Part shown: in pieces, positions 6,184 through 33,799 of the stretch
How positions within the stretch are numbered: the stretch's first letter is position 1
How the letters are laid out: every line of letters begins with the position of its first letter
Assembly (NCBI GenBank): GCA_046754205.1
Contig: JBHHVK010000001.1
Location: forward strand, 1 to 34,233
Source of the DNA: Thermodesulfobacteriota bacterium
GTDB lineage: Bacteria; Desulfobacterota; GWC2-55-46; JBHHVK01
DNA length: 34,233 nt
Direction of reading: 5' to 3'
Program-made: the position numbers and the translations under genes
Notes under the pieces: model-generated
Database searches by the model: none
Seen by the model: the letters and a program-made list of their open reading frames with translations, nothing else
What the model was told of the DNA's origin: nothing

Positions 6184-6693
6184 CTAAGCGGCGCCGCCGT
6201 AGAGCTTTTTCGAGAGCCCCGTGAGCCGCTTTACGTGGTCCTTCTCCTGCTCGATGAGCCTGGCGAGCACCTCCCTGTCCTTTTCGAGTATCATCCTCTG
6301 GAGCTCGTAGTAGAAGAGGAGGGAGTCTTTCTCCATGTCTATGGCCATCCTTATCGCCTCTTTTCCGTCAGCGACCGACAGGGCCAGCTCAGCGCCCCTG
6401 TCGGGGTTGGTGAAGACCTCGGTGTCGGCGATGGCCCTCAGGTACCTTGCCCCTTCCTCGGCGTAGGGGTCGTAGCCCTCCTTCCACGCCTCTTCGTCGG
6501 TAAGCCTCTTGAGGTCGTTGAAGACGACTATGTGCTGCTCCTCTTCACCGGCGAGGACCTCGAAGAGCTCCTTCAATTCGGGGTCGGTGGAGGCCTCTCC
6601 CGCGGTCGTGTAGAACTTGAGGCCGTTTTCCTCTATCCTGACGGCCATATCGAGGATCTCTTTTCCGGAAAAATGGACCGGGTCCATCGGCAT
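6184..6693 (-). CDS. Rubrerythrin/erythrin-family ferritin-like diiron protein (no rubredoxin domain)
   Basis: 169 aa forming a two-fold repeated four-helix pattern with diiron ligand motifs. First half: MAVRIEENGLKFY..LAGEEEQH. Second half: MAIDMEKDSLLFY..LIEQEKDH. RBS AAGGAGGAC lies directly upstream of ATG 6693. Confidence 0.8.
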   Translation of the reverse strand: MPMDPVHFSGKEILDMAVRIEENGLKFYTTAGEASTDPELKELFEVLAGEEEQHIVVFNDLKRLTDEEAWKEGYDPYAEEGARYLRAIADTEVFTNPDRGAELALSVADGKEAIRMAIDMEKDSLLFYYELQRMILEKDREVLARLIEQEKDHVKRLTGLSKKLYGGAA

Positions 6694-16104: not shown

Positions 16105-16126
16105 AGTGTAAGGACTCCGCAAGGAC

Positions 16127-16165
16127 GGGGCCGGCTTCAATTGAAGCCGGCCCCGTTTTCTTATT
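16127..16165 (+). terminator. Intrinsic terminator of the mla operon
   Basis: Perfect 14-nt arms GGGGCCGGCTTCAA / TTGAAGCCGGCCCC (16127-16154), followed by GTTTTCTTATTT. Confidence 0.85.
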
Positions 16166-16510: not shown

Positions 16511-17293
16511 ATGCAGGCACCTGCTACCGGACACGAGGAAGAATGGGAGACAAGTCCATGGCCGCTGATACTGAGCCTCGGGATACTCTTTCTCGCCCCA
16601 TTCACCTTCTCCCTGTACTTCGTCTATGACAAGCCGACACTTGCGGTGGTCTCTCTGGGCATAGGCGTCCCCCTGGTGTTAATCTCCGTAATCGGCTGGC
16701 TCAGGGAGGCCGTCGAGCACTCCCACATGCACGTACACCTCCACGGCGAGGAGCTTGGCTACGGCATCGACGCCATGCCCTTTTTCATCATCGCCGAGGC
16801 CTTCATATTCGTGGCCTTCTTCGCCACCTACTGGGTAACGAGGCTTTCCGCCCCGGAGTGGCCGCCTGCGGGCACGCCCCATCTGCCGGTGCTCATCCCG
16901 ATCATCATGACGGTGCTCCTGGTCTCATCGAGCGTCACCGTCCACGCGGCCGAGCACCAGCTCGTCCACAAGAACAACAACTCCGGGTTCATCTTCTGGC
17001 TCGTCATCACCATGCTCCTCGGCCTCGGCTTTCTCGGCCTCTCGATAAACGAGTGGAGCACCCTGTTCGGCGAGGGCTTCAACTTCAGGACCAACATATA
17101 CTCAACGGCCTTCTTCAGCATAACAGGCTTCCACGGCTCCCACGTCTTCGTCGGCCTGGCGATGTTCGTCTGCGCCCTCCTTCCCGCACTCTGGGGCAGG
17201 GCCAACAAGACCTTCATGCAGGCGGTGGGCTTCTACTGGCACTTCGTCGACATAATCTGGTTCTTCGTCGTCTCCCAGATCTACTTCTGGTAG
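16511..17293 (+). CDS. ctaE: Haem-copper oxidase subunit III with an N-terminal extension of about 90 aa containing two TM helices
   Basis: Subunit III blocks are present: FFIIAEAFIFVAFFATYW, FFSITGFHGSHVFVGL, GFYWHFVDIIWFFVV. RBS AAGGAGG lies upstream. The N-terminal region (SPWPLILSLGILFLAP..VVSLGIGVPLVLISVIGW) is extra relative to the 5-TM core. Confidence 0.9.
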   Translation: MQAPATGHEEEWETSPWPLILSLGILFLAPFTFSLYFVYDKPTLAVVSLGIGVPLVLISVIGWLREAVEHSHMHVHLHGEELGYGIDAMPFFIIAEAFIFVAFFATYWVTRLSAPEWPPAGTPHLPVLIPIIMTVLLVSSSVTVHAAEHQLVHKNNNSGFIFWLVITMLLGLGFLGLSINEWSTLFGEGFNFRTNIYSTAFFSITGFHGSHVFVGLAMFVCALLPALWGRANKTFMQAVGFYWHFVDIIWFFVVSQIYFW

Positions 17294-17320: not shown

Positions 17321-18142
17321 GTGTATACGAGGTTTTTAGCGCTCATCGCCATAACGGTCCTCCTGGGGGCCGACCGGGCCCGCGCCGAGTACGGCCGGAC
17401 CACGGATACCCAGATCGACCCCTCGGTGGTGATGATAGATGAGGACAGCTATCTCGGCGCGAAGGTGGACCCGGGGTACCGCTTCCTCGCCTTCGATGGC
17501 CGGGAGTTCACCATGGGCGACATGCTCGGCAGGCCGCTCGTCCTGATTCTCTCTTACTTCGACTGCGACGGGGCCTGCCCCACCATCAACTCCGGGCTCA
17601 GAAAAACCCTGAAGGGGGTTGAAGGGTACGCCCTCGGCGCCGACTACAGCGTCCTTACCGTCTCCTTCGACGCCGAGGACACAAAAGACGACATCGGGAT
17701 GTTCGAGAAGAAGGCCGGCATCGGCGCCGCCGAGAGGGGGGACTGGCGCGTGGCGGTCATGAAGGACCCCGCGGACATAGAGAGGCTTACCGGCAGCGTC
17801 GGCTTCAAGTTCTTCTGGTCCAAGAGGGACAAACTGTTCGTCCACTCGAGCGTATACATCTTCCTGTCCCCCGAGGGCAGGGTCACCAGGTACCTCTATT
17901 CCGCCATGGCCGGCCCGCGCGACGTGGAGGTGGCCATAGCCGAGGCCGGGTTCGGCAACCCCGGCAAGTCCAAGGTAAAGGACCTGACGGACCTGCTTCT
18001 CGTGGCCTGCTACAGCTATAACTTCAAGGAAGGTAGATATACGCTTAACTATCCCCTCTTCATCGCAACGGGCTCCCTCGCCGGGGGCCTTGCACTTATA
18101 GGGCTTTCAATAGTCATCTCCAAAAAAAAGGCACGGAGGTAA
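17321..18142 (+). CDS. sco: SCO1/SenC-family copper chaperone (thioredoxin fold) with a C-terminal TM anchor
   Basis: GTG start. SCO motif LILSYFDCDGACP (CxxxCP), with the conserved His in LFVHSSVYIFLSPEGRV. It lies between the oxidase subunit genes. Confidence 0.85.
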   Translation: MYTRFLALIAITVLLGADRARAEYGRTTDTQIDPSVVMIDEDSYLGAKVDPGYRFLAFDGREFTMGDMLGRPLVLILSYFDCDGACPTINSGLRKTLKGVEGYALGADYSVLTVSFDAEDTKDDIGMFEKKAGIGAAERGDWRVAVMKDPADIERLTGSVGFKFFWSKRDKLFVHSSVYIFLSPEGRVTRYLYSAMAGPRDVEVAIAEAGFGNPGKSKVKDLTDLLLVACYSYNFKEGRYTLNYPLFIATGSLAGGLALIGLSIVISKKKARR

Positions 18143-18146
18143 GGCC

Positions 18147-18899
18147 ATGACCGGGCGATTCCATAGACTTACACTCTTCTTGCTGCCGCTTTTCCTCGTA
18201 GTCCCGGCCGCCGCCGCTTTCGCCTATGAGCAGGCGGGAGAGGGGGGGCACGGTGCGGGCATGCGCGACCCGGCGGTCGGGTTCGAACACCTCTGGCGCG
18301 AGGTGCTGTGGGACATTACCATCATCGGTGTCGGATTCGCATTGGTCGCCGTCTACCTGATGATCAAATACAGGAGAAAGAGCCCCGGCCAGGAAGGCGG
18401 GGGGCCGAGGCTCACGCTGGTCCAGTCCCTTACCTGGGCGCTCATACCAGTCTTCATATTCATGGCGGACGACATATACCTCGCCGCCAAGGGGTGGACC
18501 CTCTGGAACGAATACAGGAGGGTCCCCGACGGGGCCTACGAGGTGGAGCTCAAGAGCGCCATGTGGAGCTGGAACTTCACTCACGAGGGCGGGGTGGAGG
18601 CCACGAACGAGCTCCGTGTCCCGGCGGGCCGCCCGGTGCTCGTGAAGATGACGAGCATGGACACGGTGCACAGTATGTACCTGCCCGACTTCAAGGTCAA
18701 AGAGGACTCCATGCCCGGACGCATAACGTACCTCTGGTTCCTCCCGAAGGAGCCCGGAGAGCACCTGATAACCTGCGCAGAGTACTGCGGCATGCTCCAC
18801 TCGAGCATGATTGGCAAGGTGATAGCCATGCCCGAGGAGGAGTTCTTCAGCTGGCTTCACGAGGAGCAGCGTAAAGTTAAAGGAGGTACTCAGTCATGA
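18147..18899 (+). CDS. ctaC: Cytochrome c oxidase subunit II (CuA; no fused cytochrome c domain)
   Basis: CuA ligands are present: VHSMYLP ... CAEYCGMLHSSM (H..CxExCGxxHxxM). There is no CxxCH motif anywhere in the protein. The stop overlaps the ctaD start (ATGA at 18896-18899). Confidence 0.92.
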   Translation: MTGRFHRLTLFLLPLFLVVPAAAAFAYEQAGEGGHGAGMRDPAVGFEHLWREVLWDITIIGVGFALVAVYLMIKYRRKSPGQEGGGPRLTLVQSLTWALIPVFIFMADDIYLAAKGWTLWNEYRRVPDGAYEVELKSAMWSWNFTHEGGVEATNELRVPAGRPVLVKMTSMDTVHSMYLPDFKVKEDSMPGRITYLWFLPKEPGEHLITCAEYCGMLHSSMIGKVIAMPEEEFFSWLHEEQRKVKGGTQS

Positions 18900-20485
18900 G
18901 CGCACAGGGAGGCTTCGGCAAGACCTTGAAGGAGTGGATATTCTCCACTGACCACAAGAAGATCGGGGTGATGTACCTTATCGGGTCGCTGGCGGCCTTC
19001 GCCATAGCCGGGCTCATAGCGCTCCTCATAAGGATCGAGCTCTCCAAGGTGGGGCCCACGCTGACGGACAACCCCAACACCTACAACGTCTGGCTCTACT
19101 TCCACGGCGCGGCCATGATCCTCGGCTTCCAGATACCGGCGCTCACGGGGTTTTTCGCCAATTACCTCATCCCTCTTCAGATAGGGGCGAAGGACGTGGC
19201 CTTCCCGAGGCTCAACGCCTTCAGTCTCTGGCTCTTCTGGGCGGGGATAATCCTGGCGCTCCTGACCTTCGTCATACCCGATCCCCCGGACATCATGTGG
19301 ACCGGCTACCCCCCTTACTCGATAATGACGCCGGGCAATACGGCCATGTACACCTTCACGGTCCTGATCCTCGGCTTCGCCTCGATAGCGGGAGGCATCA
19401 ACCTCATAGTCACCATAATAAACATGCGCGCCCCGGGCATGACCTGGGGCAAGCTCAACATCTTCGTATGGGCCACCCTCGGGGCGTTCCTCATCCAGCT
19501 CGTCTTCGTCCCGGTGCTCGGCAGCGCCGTCACCATGATCACCTTCGACAAGTACCTGGGGACGAGCTTTTTCAGCCCCGGCAACGGCGGTGACGTGCTC
19601 CTCTATCAGAATCTCTTCTGGTTCTACTCCCACCCGGCGGTCTACGTCATCCTGCTGCCCTTTATCGGGATAATCTTCGAGATAGTCGCCACCTTCGCCA
19701 GAAACAGGATATTCAACTACAGGGTGGCCGTCTACGGCGGCATCTTCGGGGTCGTCGCCATCTCCGGAGAGGTCTGGATCCACCACCTCTACACCTCGGG
19801 CATGCCCAACTGGATAAGGATAGGCATGATGATCTCCACGCTCATGATAAGCGTGCCCGTGGGGCTTCTGGTCATAAGCCTGGTGGGGACGCTGTACAGG
19901 GGGGCCATCGAGTACAAGACGCCCATGCTCTACGCGGTGGGCTTCATTTTTCTCTTCCTCATAGGGGGCCTTACGGGCATACCCCACGCCCTGGCCGCCC
20001 TCGACCTTCAGCTGCAGGACACCCACTTCGTGGTGGCACACTTTCACTACGTCATGGCGGTCGCGGGCACCTTCGGCATCATCGGGGGCGTCTACTACCT
20101 CTTCCCCAAGATGAGCGGCAAGATGTACAACGAGGGGCTCGGAAAGCTCGCCTTCGTCTTCACCTTCATAGGGGCCAACCTGACCTTCTTCACCATGTTC
20201 ATCGTCGGACTGAAGGGCATGCCGAGGAGGTACTTCGACTACTCCCAGATGCCGCAGCTCGAACACCTCCATCAGATAGTCACCCTCGGGGCCTTCATAC
20301 TCGGCTTCGGAGTTCTTCTTACCTTCATAAGCTGGATACACGGGCTGGTGGCGGGCAGGAAGGCCCCGGACAACCCCTGGGGCTCGAGGTCGCTCGAGTG
20401 GACGACGAGCACACCTCCCGGGCCCGGCAACTGGCCCGAGGTGCCGAACTGCGAGGACTTCGATCCCTATGGATACGGCTCCTGA
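18896..20485 (+). CDS. ctaD: Cytochrome c oxidase subunit I, A2-type
   Basis: Canonical blocks are present: STDHKKIGVMYL, helix VI FWFYSHPAVYVILLP (the YSHPxV signature of A2-type enzymes, rather than GHPEV), WIHHLYTSG, and FVVAHFHYVM. Confidence 0.95.
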   Translation: MSAQGGFGKTLKEWIFSTDHKKIGVMYLIGSLAAFAIAGLIALLIRIELSKVGPTLTDNPNTYNVWLYFHGAAMILGFQIPALTGFFANYLIPLQIGAKDVAFPRLNAFSLWLFWAGIILALLTFVIPDPPDIMWTGYPPYSIMTPGNTAMYTFTVLILGFASIAGGINLIVTIINMRAPGMTWGKLNIFVWATLGAFLIQLVFVPVLGSAVTMITFDKYLGTSFFSPGNGGDVLLYQNLFWFYSHPAVYVILLPFIGIIFEIVATFARNRIFNYRVAVYGGIFGVVAISGEVWIHHLYTSGMPNWIRIGMMISTLMISVPVGLLVISLVGTLYRGAIEYKTPMLYAVGFIFLFLIGGLTGIPHALAALDLQLQDTHFVVAHFHYVMAVAGTFGIIGGVYYLFPKMSGKMYNEGLGKLAFVFTFIGANLTFFTMFIVGLKGMPRRYFDYSQMPQLEHLHQIVTLGAFILGFGVLLTFISWIHGLVAGRKAPDNPWGSRSLEWTTSTPPGPGNWPEVPNCEDFDPYGYGS

Positions 20486-20515: not shown

Positions 20516-21427
20516 ATGATGTTCAGAACGGATGCGATAACACCGAAGCTCGGTCTCATGCTCGGCTCGACCGTGCTCTTCACCTATCTTCTGATGGTCA
20601 TGGGGACTTTCGTCACCTCGACGGGCTCAGGGCTCGCCTGCCCCGACTGGCCGCTCTGCTACGGCTCGGTGGCCCCGCCGCTTGAGCTCTCCATCTGGTT
20701 CGAATGGGGGCACAGGCTCCTCGGGGGCATTACGGGCGTGCTCATAATATCCTCCACGCTCCTGGTCTGGAAGTACCAGCGGGGGATGCCGAGGGCGCTC
20801 ACCGCCGTTATCCTCGCCTTCCTCGCCGTTGCGGTCTTGCTCGGCGGGGTCACGGTGCTCCTCGAGGCCCCGCTCCTCGAGGGATTCGCCCACGTGGCCG
20901 TGATATCCACCCACCTGGTGATAGCCACGCTGGTGCTCACCTGCCTCGTCTTTACGCTGAGATACGTCGTCGGCTCCGGGGCGGACACTTCGATGAGATA
21001 TCTGCCCTACCTCTTCGGGGCGGTCTACCTGCAGGTCATATTGGGCATCCTCGTCCGGTACTCCGGCGCCACGCTCGCCTGCCCGGACTTCCCGCTCTGC
21101 AACGGCGCGGTCGTGCCCGATTTCACCGGCTACGCCGTGGCGCTCCACTACACTCACAGGGTGCTCGCCCTGTTGATATTCCTCGCCGCGGGGGCGGCCC
21201 TCCTGAGGGCCGTAAGGGGCGGTGGCGGGAAGAGGACCGCCGCCGTGGTCTTCGCACTTGTCTCCTGCCAGGCGGTCTTCGGCATGCTCGTGGTCCTTAC
21301 GGGCATGTTCCTGCCGGTGATAATCATGCACGGCGCAACCGGTTTCATGCTCCTCGGCTATCTCGCCTACCAGTCCATGCCCCTGCTCTTCGGCGCGGGA
21401 GCGGAAAGGAGCCCGGTACGGTCATGA
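20516..21427 (+). CDS. ctaA: Haem A synthase (COX15/CtaA)
   Basis: STGSGLACPDWPLCYG and a second half ATLACPDFPLCNG, with the conserved His residues (EWGHR, YTHR). RBS GGAGG is present. The stop overlaps the ctaB start (ATGA at 21424-21427). Confidence 0.9.
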   Translation: MMFRTDAITPKLGLMLGSTVLFTYLLMVMGTFVTSTGSGLACPDWPLCYGSVAPPLELSIWFEWGHRLLGGITGVLIISSTLLVWKYQRGMPRALTAVILAFLAVAVLLGGVTVLLEAPLLEGFAHVAVISTHLVIATLVLTCLVFTLRYVVGSGADTSMRYLPYLFGAVYLQVILGILVRYSGATLACPDFPLCNGAVVPDFTGYAVALHYTHRVLALLIFLAAGAALLRAVRGGGGKRTAAVVFALVSCQAVFGMLVVLTGMFLPVIIMHGATGFMLLGYLAYQSMPLLFGAGAERSPVRS

Positions 21428-22320
21428 ATAACGAATACGCCGCACACAGGGCCGAAGCCTTCGGGGGTCCGGTCGCCGACTACCTGATACTCACCAAGCC
21501 CGGCATAGTGGGGCTCGTGCTCGTCTCGACGCTGGCCGGGGTATATCTCGGCGGCAGGGGGATGGTGGAGCTGCCTCTCATGCTCTGGACGCTTGCCGGC
21601 GTGGGGCTCGCCACCGCCGGCTCGGCCATGCTGAACAACTACATCGACAGGGACATAGACAGGCTCATGCCCAGGACGTCGTCGAGGGCGCTCGCCGCCG
21701 GCACCGTACGGCCCGCCCTGGCGCTCGCCTCGGGTGTCGCGCTCGTCGCGCTCTCCGCGGCCCTTCTCGCCCTTGAGGTCAACGTCCTTACGGCGGCCCT
21801 CTCGGCCGCGGCCGTTTTCTTCTACGTCGTCCTCTACGGGATGCTCATGAAGAGGAGGACCTCCTGGGCAAACCAGGTCGGGTGCGTGGCCGGGGCGCTC
21901 CCCCCTGTGCTCGGGTACGCCGCGGCCACGGGCACCGTGCCGCTCGAGGCCGTGGCGCTCTTCGCGCTCGTCACCTTCTGGCAGCAGCCCCACGCCCTGA
22001 GCCTCGCGCTCAAGTACAGGGACGAGTACGCTGCCGCCGGCATACCGGTGGTCCCGGTGGCGCTCGGGGTTTCGAGGACGAAGACGAGGATCGCCCTGTA
22101 CACCGCCCTCTTGCTGCCCCTGTCCATAGTCCCCTATCTCCTGGGCATGACTGGCACGGTCTATCTCCTTGCGGCCCTGCCGCTCGGGGCGTTCTACCTG
22201 GCCCTGGCCGTGAGGTTTCTCGCTTCGAAGCGGAGCACGGACATGTTCCTCTTCTTCTACTCCATCGTCTATCTCACCAGTGTCTTCACGGTCATGGTGG
22301 CGGACATGAGGATCATTTAA
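21424..22320 (+). CDS. ctaB: Protohaem IX farnesyltransferase (haem O synthase)
   Basis: The true start is ATG 21424 (MNNEYAAHRAE..DYLILTKPGIV). UbiA-family motif NNYIDRDIDRLMPRTSSRAL is present. The 5' 720 nt of track ORF 20704..22320 is an out-of-frame read-through of ctaA. Confidence 0.92.
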   Translation: MNNEYAAHRAEAFGGPVADYLILTKPGIVGLVLVSTLAGVYLGGRGMVELPLMLWTLAGVGLATAGSAMLNNYIDRDIDRLMPRTSSRALAAGTVRPALALASGVALVALSAALLALEVNVLTAALSAAAVFFYVVLYGMLMKRRTSWANQVGCVAGALPPVLGYAAATGTVPLEAVALFALVTFWQQPHALSLALKYRDEYAAAGIPVVPVALGVSRTKTRIALYTALLLPLSIVPYLLGMTGTVYLLAALPLGAFYLALAVRFLASKRSTDMFLFFYSIVYLTSVFTVMVADMRII

Positions 22321-22338
22321 AAGAGAGGTATACCGGAG

Positions 22339-22455
22339 ATGTCGAACGCCAAGTCCGATGACTCAAGGAAAAAGCAGAAGAGCGCCCTTGTAATAGGCCT
22401 CCTTGTGCTCTTCAACTTCATCGTCGTCTGGGTGGTGCTCGCCTGGAGGCTCTGA
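22339..22455 (+). CDS. 38-aa single-TM micro-protein (not in the ORF track)
   Basis: Manual translation: MSNAKSDDSRKKQKSALVIGLLVLFNFIVVWVVLAWRL. RBS AAGAGAGG lies about 10 nt upstream. Codon usage is typical of this window. The stop overlaps the next start (TGATG at 22453-22457). The layout (charged N-terminus plus one TM helix) resembles the 34-aa subunit IIa of Thermus ba3 oxidase. Confidence 0.6.
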   Translation: MSNAKSDDSRKKQKSALVIGLLVLFNFIVVWVVLAWRL

Positions 22456-22859
22456 TGGGCCTGGAGTGGGCGCTCGCCACGGCAAGCCAGGCGGCGATAG
22501 CCGCAAGCGGGCTCCTCGTGGCCGCGGGCGTGGTCCTGGTAAGGCTCGGCCACCGGGACCTCCACAGGCGCGCCATGCTCACGGCCTGCGCCTTCGCCGT
22601 GGTCTTCGTCGTCCTCTACGTGGCAGGCTCGACGCTCTTTCCCCCGGAGCGGTACTCGGGCGGCATGAGGCGGCTCTTCTATTCGCTCCTCTGGTCTCAT
22701 ACCCTCTTGTCGCTGGTAAACCTCCCCCTTGCCGTCGTAACGGTCTACCTCGCCTTCAGGGGCAGGTTCGACCGCCACAGGCGGGTGGCGCCCTTTACGG
22801 CCGGGGTCTGGATGTACGTGGCCGCCTCGGGGTGGACGATATTCCTCATGAACGGATGA
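22455..22859 (+). CDS. ctaM: DUF420 / CtaM-like 4-TM membrane protein (oxidase biogenesis-associated)
   Basis: 134 aa with four TM helices. Conserved-His pattern: GHRDLHRRAM, LLWSHTLLSLVNLPL, FDRHRRVAPFTAGVWMYV. This matches my recollection of DUF420. It sits downstream of ctaA-ctaB. Confidence 0.7.
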   Translation: MGLEWALATASQAAIAASGLLVAAGVVLVRLGHRDLHRRAMLTACAFAVVFVVLYVAGSTLFPPERYSGGMRRLFYSLLWSHTLLSLVNLPLAVVTVYLAFRGRFDRHRRVAPFTAGVWMYVAASGWTIFLMNG

Positions 22860-22874
22860 TGCGGGCCTGACGCC

Positions 22875-24284
22875 ATGTTCGATAGATGTGAAAAGAGCAC
22901 GAGGAGACTCCTTCTCGGCTGGCTGGGGCTGGCGGTCTTCTCGCTCCTCTTCGCCGGGCTTTTCGCCATACTCATAGTGCTGGCGAGGACCCCGGGGGTG
23001 GAGGGGCTCCTTGCCGTGGGCCGGGACTACGTCTACGTGGGCCTTGTGGGGCACGTGGTCCTCGCCTTCGTCATCTGGTTTCTCGCCTTCGAGGGTTTCC
23101 TCTGGGTCTATACGACGACGGCCTTTATCGGCCACGCCGAGGCCTCGGCTGGCCTCGGCTTCGCCTCTCTCGCCCTTTCGGCCCTCGGGGTCGGCCTCGT
23201 GGTCGTCTCGGCCGCCGGGGGGCTCGGCGCCCCGGTGCTCGCCAACTACGTCCCCGTGCTCATGACCCCCTGGTTCTACGCGGGGCTCGCGCTCTTCGCC
23301 GCCGGCATAGTCGGGACGATCGCAAACTCCTTTGCTACGGCGTGGAAGGCGCGCCGCGCGGGCGCGGTCCTCCCGGCCCCGGCCTTCGGCATGATGGTGG
23401 CCGGCGTGGCGGTCCTTACGGCCTTCGTCTGCTTCGCCCTGGTCGGCTGGTTCCAGTGGCGGGCCGGGGGGGCAATAGACTTCGAGCGCCTCAACTGGGG
23501 CGGCGGCCACGTCCTCCAGTTCGCCAACACCGTTGCCGTCGTATCGGTGTGGCTCTACCTCTCGGAGAAGGCCTTCGGCCCCGGGGGCGTGCTCGTCGGA
23601 GGCCGGACGGCCAGGGCCCTCTTTCTCGTCTACCTCGCCTTCATAATCCCGGCCCCATTCATATACATCTTCGGCGACCCCTCGGCCCAGTCCCACCTCG
23701 ACGCCTTCACCTGGCTCATGCGCTGGGGCCACGGCCCCTCCACCGGGCTTTTCATCCTCGCCGGGCTTTACGCGATTATCCGCAGAGGAGAGTTCCCCTG
23801 GAAGGACCCGGTCTTCTCCTCGCTCCTCCTCTCCATGATCATCTACGTCGTGGGAGGGTTGATCGCCATGGACATCCGCGGGGTGAACACCAAGATACCG
23901 GCGCATTACCACTCGGTAATAGTTGCCATCACCATAGCCTTCATGGCCGTATTCTACCTCGTCATGCCGCTCGTGGGCAGGAGGGTCTGGAGCGGCCGGA
24001 TGGCCTCGGTTCAGCCGTACCTCTACAGCTTCGGGATAGTGCTCTTCGTCGCCGGCCTTTACGTCGCCGGTTCCTACGGCATGGAAAGGAAGGCGATGGC
24101 CGGGGCGCAGAACCTCGACACCTTCTGGAAGACCTTCGGCATGGCGCTCATGGGCTTCGGGGGGCTGGTGGCCATCTCCGGCGGGGTGACCTTCGTCTGG
24201 AACGCTCTGATGAGCCTCTTTTCGACCTCGGCGAGGCGTAGGCCCTCCGGCGGGCATTTGCCCTTGACCGGGGGCGCCCGTTAA
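22875..24284 (+). CDS. Divergent B-family-like haem-copper oxidase subunit I paralog that apparently lacks the CuB site
   Basis: 469 aa with 12 predicted TM helices. By-eye alignment to Thermus ba3 subunit I (recalled from memory) gives: GLVGH60VVL ~ GLTLH72GVL (haem b ligand). WGGGH212VLQF ~ WWTGH233PIVY (one CuB His kept, the cross-link Tyr replaced by Phe216). PAPFI263Y264IFGDPS ~ PVGFH282H283QFADPG (both helix VII CuB His lost). EFPWKDPVF ~ ALPWDNPAF. IPAH344YH346 ~ VPGH384FH386 (both haem ligands kept). No subunit II gene is adjacent. Confidence 0.7.
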   Translation: MFDRCEKSTRRLLLGWLGLAVFSLLFAGLFAILIVLARTPGVEGLLAVGRDYVYVGLVGHVVLAFVIWFLAFEGFLWVYTTTAFIGHAEASAGLGFASLALSALGVGLVVVSAAGGLGAPVLANYVPVLMTPWFYAGLALFAAGIVGTIANSFATAWKARRAGAVLPAPAFGMMVAGVAVLTAFVCFALVGWFQWRAGGAIDFERLNWGGGHVLQFANTVAVVSVWLYLSEKAFGPGGVLVGGRTARALFLVYLAFIIPAPFIYIFGDPSAQSHLDAFTWLMRWGHGPSTGLFILAGLYAIIRRGEFPWKDPVFSSLLLSMIIYVVGGLIAMDIRGVNTKIPAHYHSVIVAITIAFMAVFYLVMPLVGRRVWSGRMASVQPYLYSFGIVLFVAGLYVAGSYGMERKAMAGAQNLDTFWKTFGMALMGFGGLVAISGGVTFVWNALMSLFSTSARRRPSGGHLPLTGGAR

Positions 24285-24320: not shown

Positions 24321-24394
24321 GCGGGCGTAATTCAATGGTAGAATGGAAGCTTCCCAAGCTTCATACGTGGGTTCGATTCCCATCGCCCGCTCCA
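24321..24394 (+). tRNA. tRNA-Gly (anticodon CCC)
   Basis: Manual cloverleaf: acceptor GCGGGCG/CGCCCGC, D stem ATTC/GAAT, anticodon stem GAAGC/GCTTC with loop TTCCCAA, variable loop ATAC, T arm GTGGG-TTCGATT-CCCAT, discriminator T, and an encoded CCA. Confidence 0.93.
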
Positions 24395-32757: not shown

Positions 32758-33261
32758 ATGCCATCGATAAGGATTCCGAGAGACGCTTCCTCTGGTTACT
32801 ACTTCCTTACCTTCACGGTGCGTAACTGGTACTATGTCCTCGACAGGCACAACCGTTTTGAGATACTCGGCGACGCGCTGAAGTTCTCGATAGAGAAAAA
32901 GTCCCTCAAGCTCTACGCCTATGTCTTCATGCTCAACCACCTGCACCTCGTCGTCTCTTCCCCCGACGTAGTTGGATTCGTCAGGGACTTCAAGAGGCAT
33001 ACGTCTAAGGAGATGCTCAATAACATCACCGCAACAGAGCCGGATGTCCTCAAGCTTTTCGAGGTAGGAGGGGGGAGGCACGAGTTCTGGGCAAGGACGA
33101 ATATGCCGAAGTCCGTAGAGGGCGAGGGGTTTCTATTGCAGAAGGTCGACTACATCCACAAAAACCCTGTGCGCAAGCAGTACGTGATGAGACCGGAGGA
33201 TTGGGTATGGTCGTCGGCGAATTCTGAGAGCGAGGTTCCCGTCGAGCCTTTGCCGGTATGA
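32758..33261 (+). CDS. REP-associated tyrosine transposase (RAYT; IS200/IS605-type Y1 HUH transposase)
   Basis: HUH motif in FMLNHLHLVV and catalytic Tyr motif in VDYIHKNPV. The 167-aa size is typical of the family. The gene is flanked on both sides by near-identical palindromes. Confidence 0.88.
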   Translation: MPSIRIPRDASSGYYFLTFTVRNWYYVLDRHNRFEILGDALKFSIEKKSLKLYAYVFMLNHLHLVVSSPDVVGFVRDFKRHTSKEMLNNITATEPDVLKLFEVGGGRHEFWARTNMPKSVEGEGFLLQKVDYIHKNPVRKQYVMRPEDWVWSSANSESEVPVEPLPV

Positions 33262-33404: not shown

Positions 33405-33461
33405 TTGACAGAGCACAAAGGTTGTGATAAAAATCCTTTACTTGGTTGGTAAAGGATTTTA
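33405..33461 (+). promoter_or_regulatory. higBA promoter with an overlapping palindromic operator
   Basis: -35 TTGACA (33405-33410), 17-nt spacer, -10 TAAAAA (33428-33433). A perfect 12-bp inverted repeat AAAATCCTTTAC-N7-GTAAAGGATTTT (33430-33460) overlaps the -10 box and the RBS. Confidence 0.6.
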
Positions 33462-33463
33462 TA

Positions 33464-33799
33464 ATGGATATAGAATTCAAAACAAACCGCCTGGCAAAGA
33501 TCTTCAACTCAGAGGACCAGCTCTATAAGGCATACGGCAAGAAGACAGGGGCAATTATAATGCGTCGCCTCATCCTCTTGTTGGCTGCTGGTACTTTAGA
33601 GGATGTCCCACATACCCCACCAACACGAAGACATCAGCTGTCAGGGGCTAGAAAAGGAGAGTATGCAATTGATGTGGGTAAGAAGGATAGACTGATCTTC
33701 AAACCAGCCCACAACCCGTTACCGCTGAAAGAGGACGGTGGGTTAGACTTAAAGAGGGTTACGAAGATTATAATCTTAGGTGTGGAGGACTATCACTAA
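33464..33799 (+). CDS. higB: HigB-type toxin (RelE/ParE superfamily, 'killer protein' family)
   Basis: The protein ends in ..IIILGVEDYH, the characteristic C-terminus of HigB-family toxins (compare Proteus HigB ..NYEDYH). Core LSGARKGEYAIDVGKKDRLIF aligns with LKGDR.G.WSI.V..NWRI.F. I prefer ATG 33464 because AAAGGA lies 7 nt upstream. The toxin-first gene order is typical of higBA. Confidence 0.8.
   Translation: MDIEFKTNRLAKIFNSEDQLYKAYGKKTGAIIMRRLILLLAAGTLEDVPHTPPTRRHQLSGARKGEYAIDVGKKDRLIFKPAHNPLPLKEDGGLDLKRVTKIIILGVEDYH

Follow-up and report, generated by a model that had tools for sequence, protein, structure and literature searches.

What can a subunit I of a haem-copper oxidoreductase (HCO) still do once most of the ligands of its active-site copper have gone? 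The question is raised by the last gene of a cytochrome oxidase (cox) array on contig JBHHVK010000001.1 (GenBank assembly GCA_046754205.1), which stems from a metagenome-assembled genome (MAG) of a Thermodesulfobacteriota bacterium and of which the whole stretch of 34,233 nucleotides, from here on the window, was analysed. The haem/metal-B binuclear centre is the defining feature of HCOs, yet the protein encoded at 22875..24284 (+ strand; 469 aa, 12 helices; NCBI MFQ5464310.1), to which we refer as HCOL, is a subunit I homologue that has lost, together with its entire family, two of the three His ligands of the copper (CuB) and the cross-linked Tyr of the active site. A preliminary description, made by eye from the sequence, had drawn attention to this protein and to two small genes that precede it. 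HCOL turns out to represent a very widespread and so far undescribed HCO family, in which the active site is radically reduced and whose members are systematically annotated, wrongly, as cbb3 oxidase.

Fold and ligand columns of HCOL

HCOL is a member of the HCO superfamily, a homologue of subunit I that is nearest to the B family, as had been supposed from visual inspection. Its match to Pfam COX1 is weak (64.9 bits, as against 451 for the CoxI protein encoded upstream) but significant, the cut-off being 34.8. The AlphaFold2 model (predicted local distance difference test, pLDDT, 90.1; predicted template modelling score, pTM, 0.91) consists of 12 long helices, and its best match in a Foldseek search is the ba3 oxidase of Thermus thermophilus (1EHK_A; E 5e-10, template modelling score 0.76), followed by Aquifex ba3 and then by bo3, aa3, cbb3 and cNOR, with the ba3, bo3, aa3, cbb3 and cNOR structures all at probability 1.00. 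When the single HCOL sequence was searched against the PDB no match was obtained; a profile of 40 family members retrieved T. thermophilus ba3 subunit I only (E ~1e-17).

The profile alignment pairs H60 of HCOL with ba3 H72, H212 with H233, I263-Y264 with H282-H283, H344 with H384 and H346 with H386. The same columns are reproduced by a second alignment, made with MAFFT L-INS-i from the HCOL family, ba3, 18 proteins resembling the nitric oxide reductase (NOR) known as eNOR and four A-type CoxI sequences, in which F216 falls under ba3 Y237. Residue conservation was counted over 83 distinct homologues from different species, and H60, H212, Q215, H344, Y345, H346, R405 and K406 are invariant in all of them. 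Thus, the four His residues that had been listed as retained are indeed those expected from ba3: His60 (codon 23052..23054, + strand, as are all codons given here) corresponds in both alignments to the helix II axial ligand of the low-spin haem, and His344-Tyr345-His346 (23904..23912) carries the helix X ligands of the high-spin and low-spin haems. In the profile alignment, the pair Arg405-Lys406 (24087..24092) coincides with that of the ba3 'PRR' motif, which we take to bind the haem propionates. Judged by these columns, both haem sites of HCOL are kept, namely the bis-His low-spin site (H60/H346) and the proximal His of the high-spin haem (H344).

The most conserved stretch of the protein, W208-G-G-G-H212-x-L-Q215, surrounds the sole remaining CuB-type ligand. 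It runs into the segment His212-Val-Leu-Gln215-Phe216 (23508..23522), in which a Gln stands at the third position after the His, in the column of ba3 V236 (presumably lining the active-site ligand channel), and a Phe takes the place of ba3 Y237; F216 is kept in 79 of the 83 homologues. The columns of the helix VII His-His pair are occupied in both alignments by Ile263-Tyr264 (23661..23666), where position 263 is hydrophobic throughout (I/F/V/L/Y) and position 264 is Tyr in 67 homologues, Phe in 14 and His in only 2. For these substitutions, too, the alignment by eye and its residue numbers proved exact. A His pair shifted into place from H274 or H286 had been named as an observation that could overturn this picture. 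The former column holds Tyr 43 times and His 25 times and the latter is mostly Leu; since neither is conserved, no shifted His restores the CuB site. Likewise, helices VI and VII contain no other invariant Tyr among the 83 homologues, Y264 itself reaching 81%. As read from the aligned columns, HCOL is family-wide devoid of two of the three CuB His and of the cross-linked Tyr. Because the losses hold across the whole family, HCOL can be neither a conventional O2 reductase nor any described type of NOR, in agreement with what had been proposed for the single protein.

Divergent, shorter HCOLs are encoded at L087 5644-6885 (413 aa) and L088 5564-6874 (436 aa; numbers of this form designate the genomic loci compared), in which helix VI has GHIQQ and helix VII IPFVTDP. 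They still keep the His, one Gln, the HYH motif and the R-K pair, so that the family tolerates further change near the former metal site.

Extent, ancestry and annotation of the family

A first search with HCOL returned 826 related proteins; at least 578 species-level genomes contain a relative, the clusters (50% identity) that match it at E<=1e-30 number 695, and a betaproteobacterial HCOL used as seed gave 5452 matches. The hosts include Deltaproteobacteria/Thermodesulfobacteriota, Nitrospirota, Methylomirabilis, SAR324, Thiodiazotropha symbionts, Casimicrobiaceae and other Burkholderiales, and Magnetobacterium. The groups and habitats that are rich in HCOL are subsurface Thermodesulfobacteriota, Nitrospirota and Methylomirabilota, soil Betaproteobacteria, SAR324 and sulfur-oxidizing symbionts.

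The nearest sequence relatives are eNOR-like proteins that are often encoded close by. In BLASTP comparisons HCOL scores 97-136 bits against these neighbours (25-31% identity), 39 against ba3 and 29 against the CoxI of the window, and the HCOL profile gives 167-212 bits on them versus 67 on ba3. eNOR, an NO reductase with its origin in the B family (Hemp & Gennis 2008; Murali et al. 2024, PMC11214002), is recognized by a Gln where the cross-linked Tyr would be and by its three metal-B His, which are kept (PMC8756737 Table A4), and many eNOR operons contain CtaA (Murali et al. 2024, PMC11214002). The neighbouring eNOR-like genes conform to this definition, since their His-His pair is intact and their motif, G-H-(S/P)-S-Q-Q-I-N, has a Gln in the Tyr column. 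HCOL does not: it shares with eNOR the 12-helix fold, the haem ligands, the absence of the cross-linked Tyr and the linkage to ctaB, ctaA and sco genes, but has Ile-Tyr for His-His, a Phe exactly where eNOR has its Gln, a Gln one residue earlier, and no cupredoxin subunit II of its own. On the strength of these similarity scores and of the helix VI pattern G-H-x-x-Q..N common to the two groups, HCOL most likely arose by duplication within the eNOR-like B-family lineage.

The eNOR-like genes deserve mention in their own right. In them a cupredoxin subunit II is paired with a subunit I that reads GH(S/P)SQQINV and has His-His, usually with ctaB and sco near (L051 7644-9702, L036 2109-4165, L037 7656-9729; also in L044, L046, L048, L050, L057, L063, L064, L066, L074, L075 and L080). 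Common in MAGs of Deltaproteobacteria, Nitrospirae, SAR324 and Betaproteobacteria, they are, to judge from these motifs, probably unrecognized NO reductases annotated as cytochrome c oxidase.

Comparison with other members of the superfamily sets HCOL further apart. The haem ligands and the Arg pair of T. thermophilus ba3 subunit I (PDB 1EHK, 1XME) align with those of HCOL; H282, H283 and Y237 are without counterpart, and the partner subunits II and IIa of ba3 are both missing. A parallel for a substituted active-site His is gNOR, reported as the first HCO family in which one of these otherwise completely conserved residues is replaced (Murali et al. 2024, PMC11214002). In gNOR, however, one His becomes Asp and the metal-binding triad is retained, whereas HCOL has lost two His to non-ligand or weakly ligating residues and no Asp replaces either of them in the alignment. 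Literature searches on CuB-less or copper-free HCO homologues, and on the DUF1858/ScdA gene contexts described below, yielded nothing relevant except OccS of 'Candidatus Dechloromonas occultata', a protein that is reported to keep H94, H411, H413 and H276, to have lost Y280 and mostly H325/H326 and to be without D- or K-channel residues, and whose gene closes a 19-gene cluster with many multihaem cytochromes c; the note on it is brief and without functional work (Szeinbaum et al. 2020, bioRxiv 10.1101/695007). OccS, compared here by the published description of its residues only, has the ligand pattern of HCOL and is the only near-precedent for it in the literature found. The best 120 of the 5452 matches of the betaproteobacterial seed include no Dechloromonas protein and, in contrast to the OccS cluster, no multihaem cytochrome c genes flank HCOL, the betaproteobacterial loci, which are free of CxxCH-rich genes, included.

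That so large a family has been overlooked is explained by the design of earlier HCO classifications, which removed such sequences: that of Sousa et al. 2011 dropped any sequence missing one of the six His. In the databases the family has instead received a label, the NCBI name of HCOL being 'cbb3-type cytochrome c oxidase subunit I'. This label is wrong: no NCBIfam model, the CcoN equivalog model included, matches HCOL at E<=0.01, no ccoO or ccoP partner genes accompany it, and cbb3 structures rank below B- and A-family structures in the Foldseek search.

Genomic neighbourhood and natural fusions

Seed proteins were searched against the open reading frames (ORFs) of 85 HCOL loci, and precomputed annotations were read for several. 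Haem O synthase, and not DUF420, is the most constant neighbour of HCOL, its gene adjoining, overlapping or being fused to that of HCOL: it lies at most 400 nt downstream in 39 of 70 loci and somewhere in the locus in 59 of 86, and all those tested exceed the TIGR01473 cut-off. CtaA accompanies HCOL in Gamma- and Betaproteobacteria, and DUF420 adjoins it in the window and in L086, L087 and L088 but in none of the other 85 loci examined.

The genes around HCOL are arranged in two arms. The rightward arm comprises an optional CoxII-like gene with an eNOR-like subunit I, HCOL, haem O synthase, an optional SCO1 and a small cytochrome c with a signal peptide, the last found downstream of HCOL in 29 of 64 loci. 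The divergent arm, present in 25/53, contains NifU, a ferredoxin, a four-helix 'COX1 fragment' with HxH, DUF1858, ScdA_N and Mrp/ApbC; with a thiol-peroxidase-like gene, the ScdA_N, DUF1858, NifU and Mrp genes make up the stress-related genes found near HCOL. The eNOR-like subunits II and I stand directly upstream of HCOL in 9 of 70 loci and within 10 kb in many more, and such genes occur near it across Delta- and Betaproteobacteria, Nitrospirae and SAR324. The HCOL-ctaB module comes after an A-type oxidase in L022, whereas the genes before it are eNOR-like in L036, L037, L044, L046 and L051. Most close relatives of HCOL, by contrast, sit in a 'solo' HCOL-ctaB-cytochrome c operon with no other HCO within 10 kb, and the 'solo' loci contain no cupredoxin subunit II gene; where at least 8 kb could be seen on both sides, a second HCO is present in only 11 of 23 loci.

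Variations on this plan are found in other groups. In Gammaproteobacteria CtaA is divergent from HCOL, and in Betaproteobacteria the order is CytB-Fer4-FlpD, HCOL, CtaA. HCOL as a haem A synthase acting in place of CtaA was considered and rejected, as CtaA co-occurs with it in the window and in these two classes. In Nitrospirae (L035, L039, L041, L042, L043 and L084, e.g. L084 10196-12287) a rhodanese gene is divergent from HCOL, which is followed by a CbbQ/NorQ-like ATPase and then by a ResA- or thiol-peroxidase-like redoxin; a conserved 116-aa protein without family comes after these, and no NorD-like partner was seen in this variant.

Natural fusions join HCOL to UbiA (one representative), to cytochrome b (P0132), to SCO1 (a fusion that also has an extra helix and the motif CPDTCP) and to a periplasmic TPR domain that resembles CcmH/CycH, and all of them keep the HCOL motifs.

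Two of the neighbouring gene sets are of separate interest. The 'COX1 fragment' of the divergent arm is a ~140-aa protein that matches helices X-XI of COX1 only (Pfam positions 342-400), with the H-x-H kept (IHVHFNLLGW). Its operon, in the order NifU-ferredoxin-'COX1 fragment'-DUF1858-ScdA_N-Mrp/ApbC, diverges from HCOL or from the eNOR-like or A-type genes preceding it, and the fragment was found in L081 (6554-6994, - strand), L001-L012, L016, L019-L024, L036, L037, L044, L046, L051, L058, L062, L082, L083 and L085. By its motif and company it looks like a haem-binding mini-protein in an Fe-S assembly or repair set. The second set consists of fusions of a cytochrome b N-terminal domain, a 2x[4Fe-4S] ferredoxin and an FlpD/MvhD-like domain, encoded immediately before HCOL in Betaproteobacteria and in its vicinity in Nitrospirae (L075 8245-9873 and 5575-7587; L078 3308-5260 and 5863-7494; L084 1876-3996 and 5308-7386), in the latter accompanied by a NuoF-like (Complex1_51K) gene. 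Together with the cytochrome b-HCOL fusion, they suggest an unexplored electron route between cytoplasm and membrane.

What HCOL may do

Our preferred reading, still a tentative one, makes HCOL a functional redox protein with two haems and a dependence on haem O or A, in which a His/Gln pocket would be haem-only. It would be a working membrane protein, not a decayed one, descended from the eNOR-like branch of the B-family HCOs, and would bind low-spin haem b and a high-spin farnesylated haem (haem O, or haem A where CtaA is present, as in the window), presumably with no conventional CuB. Electrons would be delivered on the periplasmic side by a cytochrome of the c or b type, and a small ligand (NO, O2 or peroxide) would be bound or turned over at the haem-only pocket of His212, Gln215 and Tyr264. 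HCOL would not pump protons, because the K-path residues of ba3 do not seem to be conserved: by inspection of the alignments, Y244, Y248, T312 and T315 face non-polar residues and only S309 finds a Ser (Ser289). In the window, HCOL would be co-transcribed with the A2-type oxidase, ctaA, ctaB and the two small genes in front of it, drawing on the same haem supply.

The size of the family, the invariance of H60, H344, Y345, H346, R405 and K406 and the conserved 208-215 segment argue for a working haem pocket. Also counted in favour of a redox role are the eNOR-like ancestry, the linkage to haem O synthase, the cytochrome c and b partners, the confidently predicted fold, the position of Q215, the stress-related neighbours and the 'solo' HCOL-ctaB-cytochrome c operons, which resemble a minimal terminal-reductase operon. 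Going one step further, and with correspondingly more reserve, HCOL may stand for a copper-free, haem-only catalytic class in the superfamily, that is, a dihaem enzyme fed by cytochrome c or b with a His/Gln/Tyr pocket over the farnesylated haem, for which NO dioxygenation or reduction, peroxide reduction and low-level O2 scavenging are candidate reactions; if so, nothing alike has been described in the superfamily.

Several points weigh against such a role. We know of no HCO that catalyses anything without its metal-B site, and we infer the haem types, the metal content and the substrate of HCOL alike. Tyr264 (81%) and Asp268 (78%) are not universal among the homologues, and copper could still be bound at a remodelled site, given the SCO1 fusion. 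Biogenesis genes (CtaB, CtaA, SCO1, DUF420, the NorQ/CbbQ-like ATPase and the ResA/TlpA-like redoxin) make up much of the neighbourhood, the UbiA, SCO1 and periplasmic TPR fusions suit an assembly role equally well, and HCOL adjoins two types of HCO (A-type in L022, eNOR-like in L036 and L051), as accessory genes usually do. Furthermore, both MAGs with a 'solo' HCOL that could be checked hold an A-type cox operon on another contig (L008/L090; L026/L089).

These observations lend some credit to the main alternative, possible although on balance rather unlikely, that HCOL is a biogenesis factor for haem-copper enzymes, a subunit I look-alike that serves whichever HCO is encoded nearby, be it eNOR-like or A-type, by taking farnesylated haem from CtaB/CtaA or by holding subunit II or cofactors, in a Surf1- or CtaM-like role where those factors are missing. 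HCOL is indeed nearly always found among assembly genes (CtaB directly downstream in 39/70 loci, SCO1, CtaA in Gamma- and Betaproteobacteria, DUF420 in the window and in L086-L088, the NorQ/CbbQ-like ATPase and ResA-like redoxin in Nitrospirae); the fusions just listed, the HCOL-ctaB module trailing either type of HCO, and the A-type operons in the 'solo' genomes are all compatible with such a service. However, genuine oxidase operons such as cyoABCDE also carry ctaB and sco, so that an assembly-gene neighbourhood does not discriminate between the two readings. Moreover, both haems are buried in the 12-helix bundle of HCOs, a poor design for a hand-over chaperone, and a scaffold has no obvious need for the invariant low-spin haem site, the Arg/Lys pair and the distal His/Gln. 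The cytochrome c and b partners and fusions point to electron transfer instead, and most close relatives stand in HCOL-ctaB-cytochrome c operons in which a second HCO to be assembled is missing within 10 kb.

It is improbable that HCOL is an extra subunit, non-catalytic or relaying electrons, in a heterodimer with a real subunit I of the eNOR-like or A type. The position directly behind eNOR-like subunits II and I in some loci, the descent of HCOL from that very lineage and the precedent of a B-family oxidase homodimer (7DEG) would fit such an arrangement, but most loci lack a second HCO nearby, including about half of those seen far enough on both sides, and the HCOs next to HCOL are of two unrelated types. 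A haem-based membrane sensor of O2 or NO is more improbable still: the conserved polar distal pocket, apparently without catalytic metal, and the NO- and Fe-S-stress-type genes nearby could be so explained, but no conserved output domain or adjacent signalling gene is seen (an Rrf2 regulator is found only upstream of some cox operons), and a 12-helix dihaem scaffold with cytochrome partners would be excessive for sensing. Of the roles listed in the preliminary description, the new dihaem enzyme and the haem-handling scaffold are ranked above the sensor. Finally, an artefact, either a decaying CoxI duplicate or a mis-alignment hiding a normal His-His, as the low Pfam score (65 bits) and the high-GC sequence with its many overlapping ORFs might have intimated, is scarcely conceivable and is refuted by a gene that is intact, with invariant motifs, in at least 83 species and represented by 695 clusters at 50% identity, by the confident structure model, by three independent alignments that agree (ba3 profile, MAFFT, Foldseek), by the lack of conservation of H274/H286 and by the far greater similarity of HCOL to eNOR-like proteins than to the CoxI of the window.

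The micro-protein and DUF420

The three consecutive ORFs that had been singled out are present at 22339-22455, 22455-22859 and 22875-24284, the last being HCOL. The first encodes a 38-aa protein with one hydrophobic helix (22339..22455, +), which belongs to no Pfam or NCBIfam family and, as had been noticed, is missing from the NCBI annotation of the contig. The second (22455..22859, +) encodes a four-helix protein of 134 aa whose assignment as DUF420/CtaM-like is secured by its match to Pfam PF04238 (E 1.8e-32) over nearly the full profile (positions 3-129 of 130); it is a clear member of the family of CtaM, which in Bacillus and Staphylococcus is required for active aa3 oxidase (PMC8239418).

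The three genes had been regarded as a trio, with the 38-aa protein as a partner of HCOL resembling subunit IIa of ba3. Neither notion survives comparison. Seven homologues of the micro-protein were found, all immediately before DUF420 at the end of A-type cox-ctaA-ctaB operons; the aligned sequences have a basic N-terminus, one Asn-containing helix and a C-terminal L[AS][WS]R[LF], and the stop codon abuts or overlaps the DUF420 start (TGATG in the window). The closest relative of HCOL (63% identity, L086) has exactly the layout of the window, with a 40-aa ORF before DUF420, and in L087 and L088 the order is CtaB, divergent HCOL, a 39- or 43-aa ORF and then DUF420. At least two operons, those of L090 and L091, finish with CtaB, the micro-ORF and DUF420 without any HCOL (L089 ends at the contig edge). 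DUF420 itself forms about 25 close clusters and lies at the end of A-type cox-ctaAB operons. Among the loci examined, the trio is confined to the window, L086, L087 and L088, in two gene orders, and is a lineage-specific juxtaposition.

The micro-protein is real and conserved, and its partner in A-type cox operons is DUF420, not HCOL. It is like subunit IIa in size and in having a single helix but, since it always precedes DUF420 and is present also where HCOL or any B-type subunit I is absent, it does not behave as a IIa. As a pair, the micro-protein and DUF420 are a new candidate for an oxidase assembly module of two components.

The cox array and its surroundings in the window

HCOL closes an array of nine tightly packed genes, all on the + strand: COX3, SCO1-like, COX2, COX1, CtaA, CtaB, the 38-aa ORF, DUF420 and HCOL. 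The 5' limit of the transcription unit is set by a strong terminator-like hairpin (16122..16159, +; 17 bp stem and T run) that ends the upstream Mla operon. COX3 (cytochrome oxidase subunit III; 16511..17293, +; Pfam PF00510, E 2.1e-28) is followed by a gene with a weak SCO1/SenC match (17321..18142, +; Pfam PF02630, 24.1 bits versus a cut-off of 22.8), whose position in the operon is the same in L086-L091. COX2 (18147..18899, +; Pfam COX2, E 4e-14; TIGR02866) is the cupredoxin subunit II of the A-type oxidase and the sole subunit II gene in the window; HCOL thus has none of its own there, as had been stated. CoxI (18896..20485, +; Pfam COX1 451 bits, TIGR02891 578 bits) is a canonical A2-type subunit I; the six His are all kept, as is the Tyr, in the motifs 'FYSHPAVY' (A2-type), 'HH' and 'HFH'. 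The haem A synthase CtaA (20516..21427, +; Pfam COX15-CtaA, E 3.5e-34) precedes the haem O synthase CtaB (21424..22320, +; TIGR01473 cyoE_ctaB 276 bits against a cut-off of 210.3; Pfam UbiA), the ATG of which overlaps the CtaA stop. These Pfam and TIGR matches confirm the upstream gene set of the preliminary description. At the 3' end of the array, 37 nt past the HCOL stop, stands a tRNA-Gly(CCC) gene (24321..24394, +), and then a convergent aminotransferase gene. No terminator-like site was seen between the HCOL stop and the tRNA gene, which is on the same strand and may be co-transcribed with the cox operon.

In L089 (215-664), L090 (445-885) and L091 (1-243), an Rrf2-family regulator (NsrR/IscR-like) is encoded directly 5' of COX3; it is not found in the window, where the Mla operon and the terminator precede COX3. 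A 646-aa ORF on the opposite strand (22317-24257, -) covers nearly all of the DUF420 and HCOL region; it was rejected as a gene, since nothing supports it and a high-GC shadow of HCOL accounts for it best. A rubrerythrin gene (6184-6693, -), typical of the oxidative-stress defence of anaerobes, is found some 10 kb away from the A2 oxidase operon, which is of the aerobic type. At the end of the contig (32700-34233) the GC content drops from ~0.63 to 0.46. A fragment of an IS200-like Y1 transposase (32758-33261) is encoded there, as is a HigB-like toxin (33446-33799), and the segment is probably mobile or of foreign origin.

Significance of the family

A large family under strong purifying selection that has lost two His and the Tyr while keeping both haem sites breaks the defining rule of the superfamily, and HCOL can be seen as a natural experiment on what the HCO scaffold does without copper. 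As HCOL branches from the eNOR-like lineage, it also bears on the interconversion of O2 and NO reductases. In practical terms, thousands of HCOL genes carry the cbb3 subunit I label in MAGs of nominal anaerobes and denitrifiers, and the capacity for aerobic respiration inferred for these organisms is inflated as a consequence.

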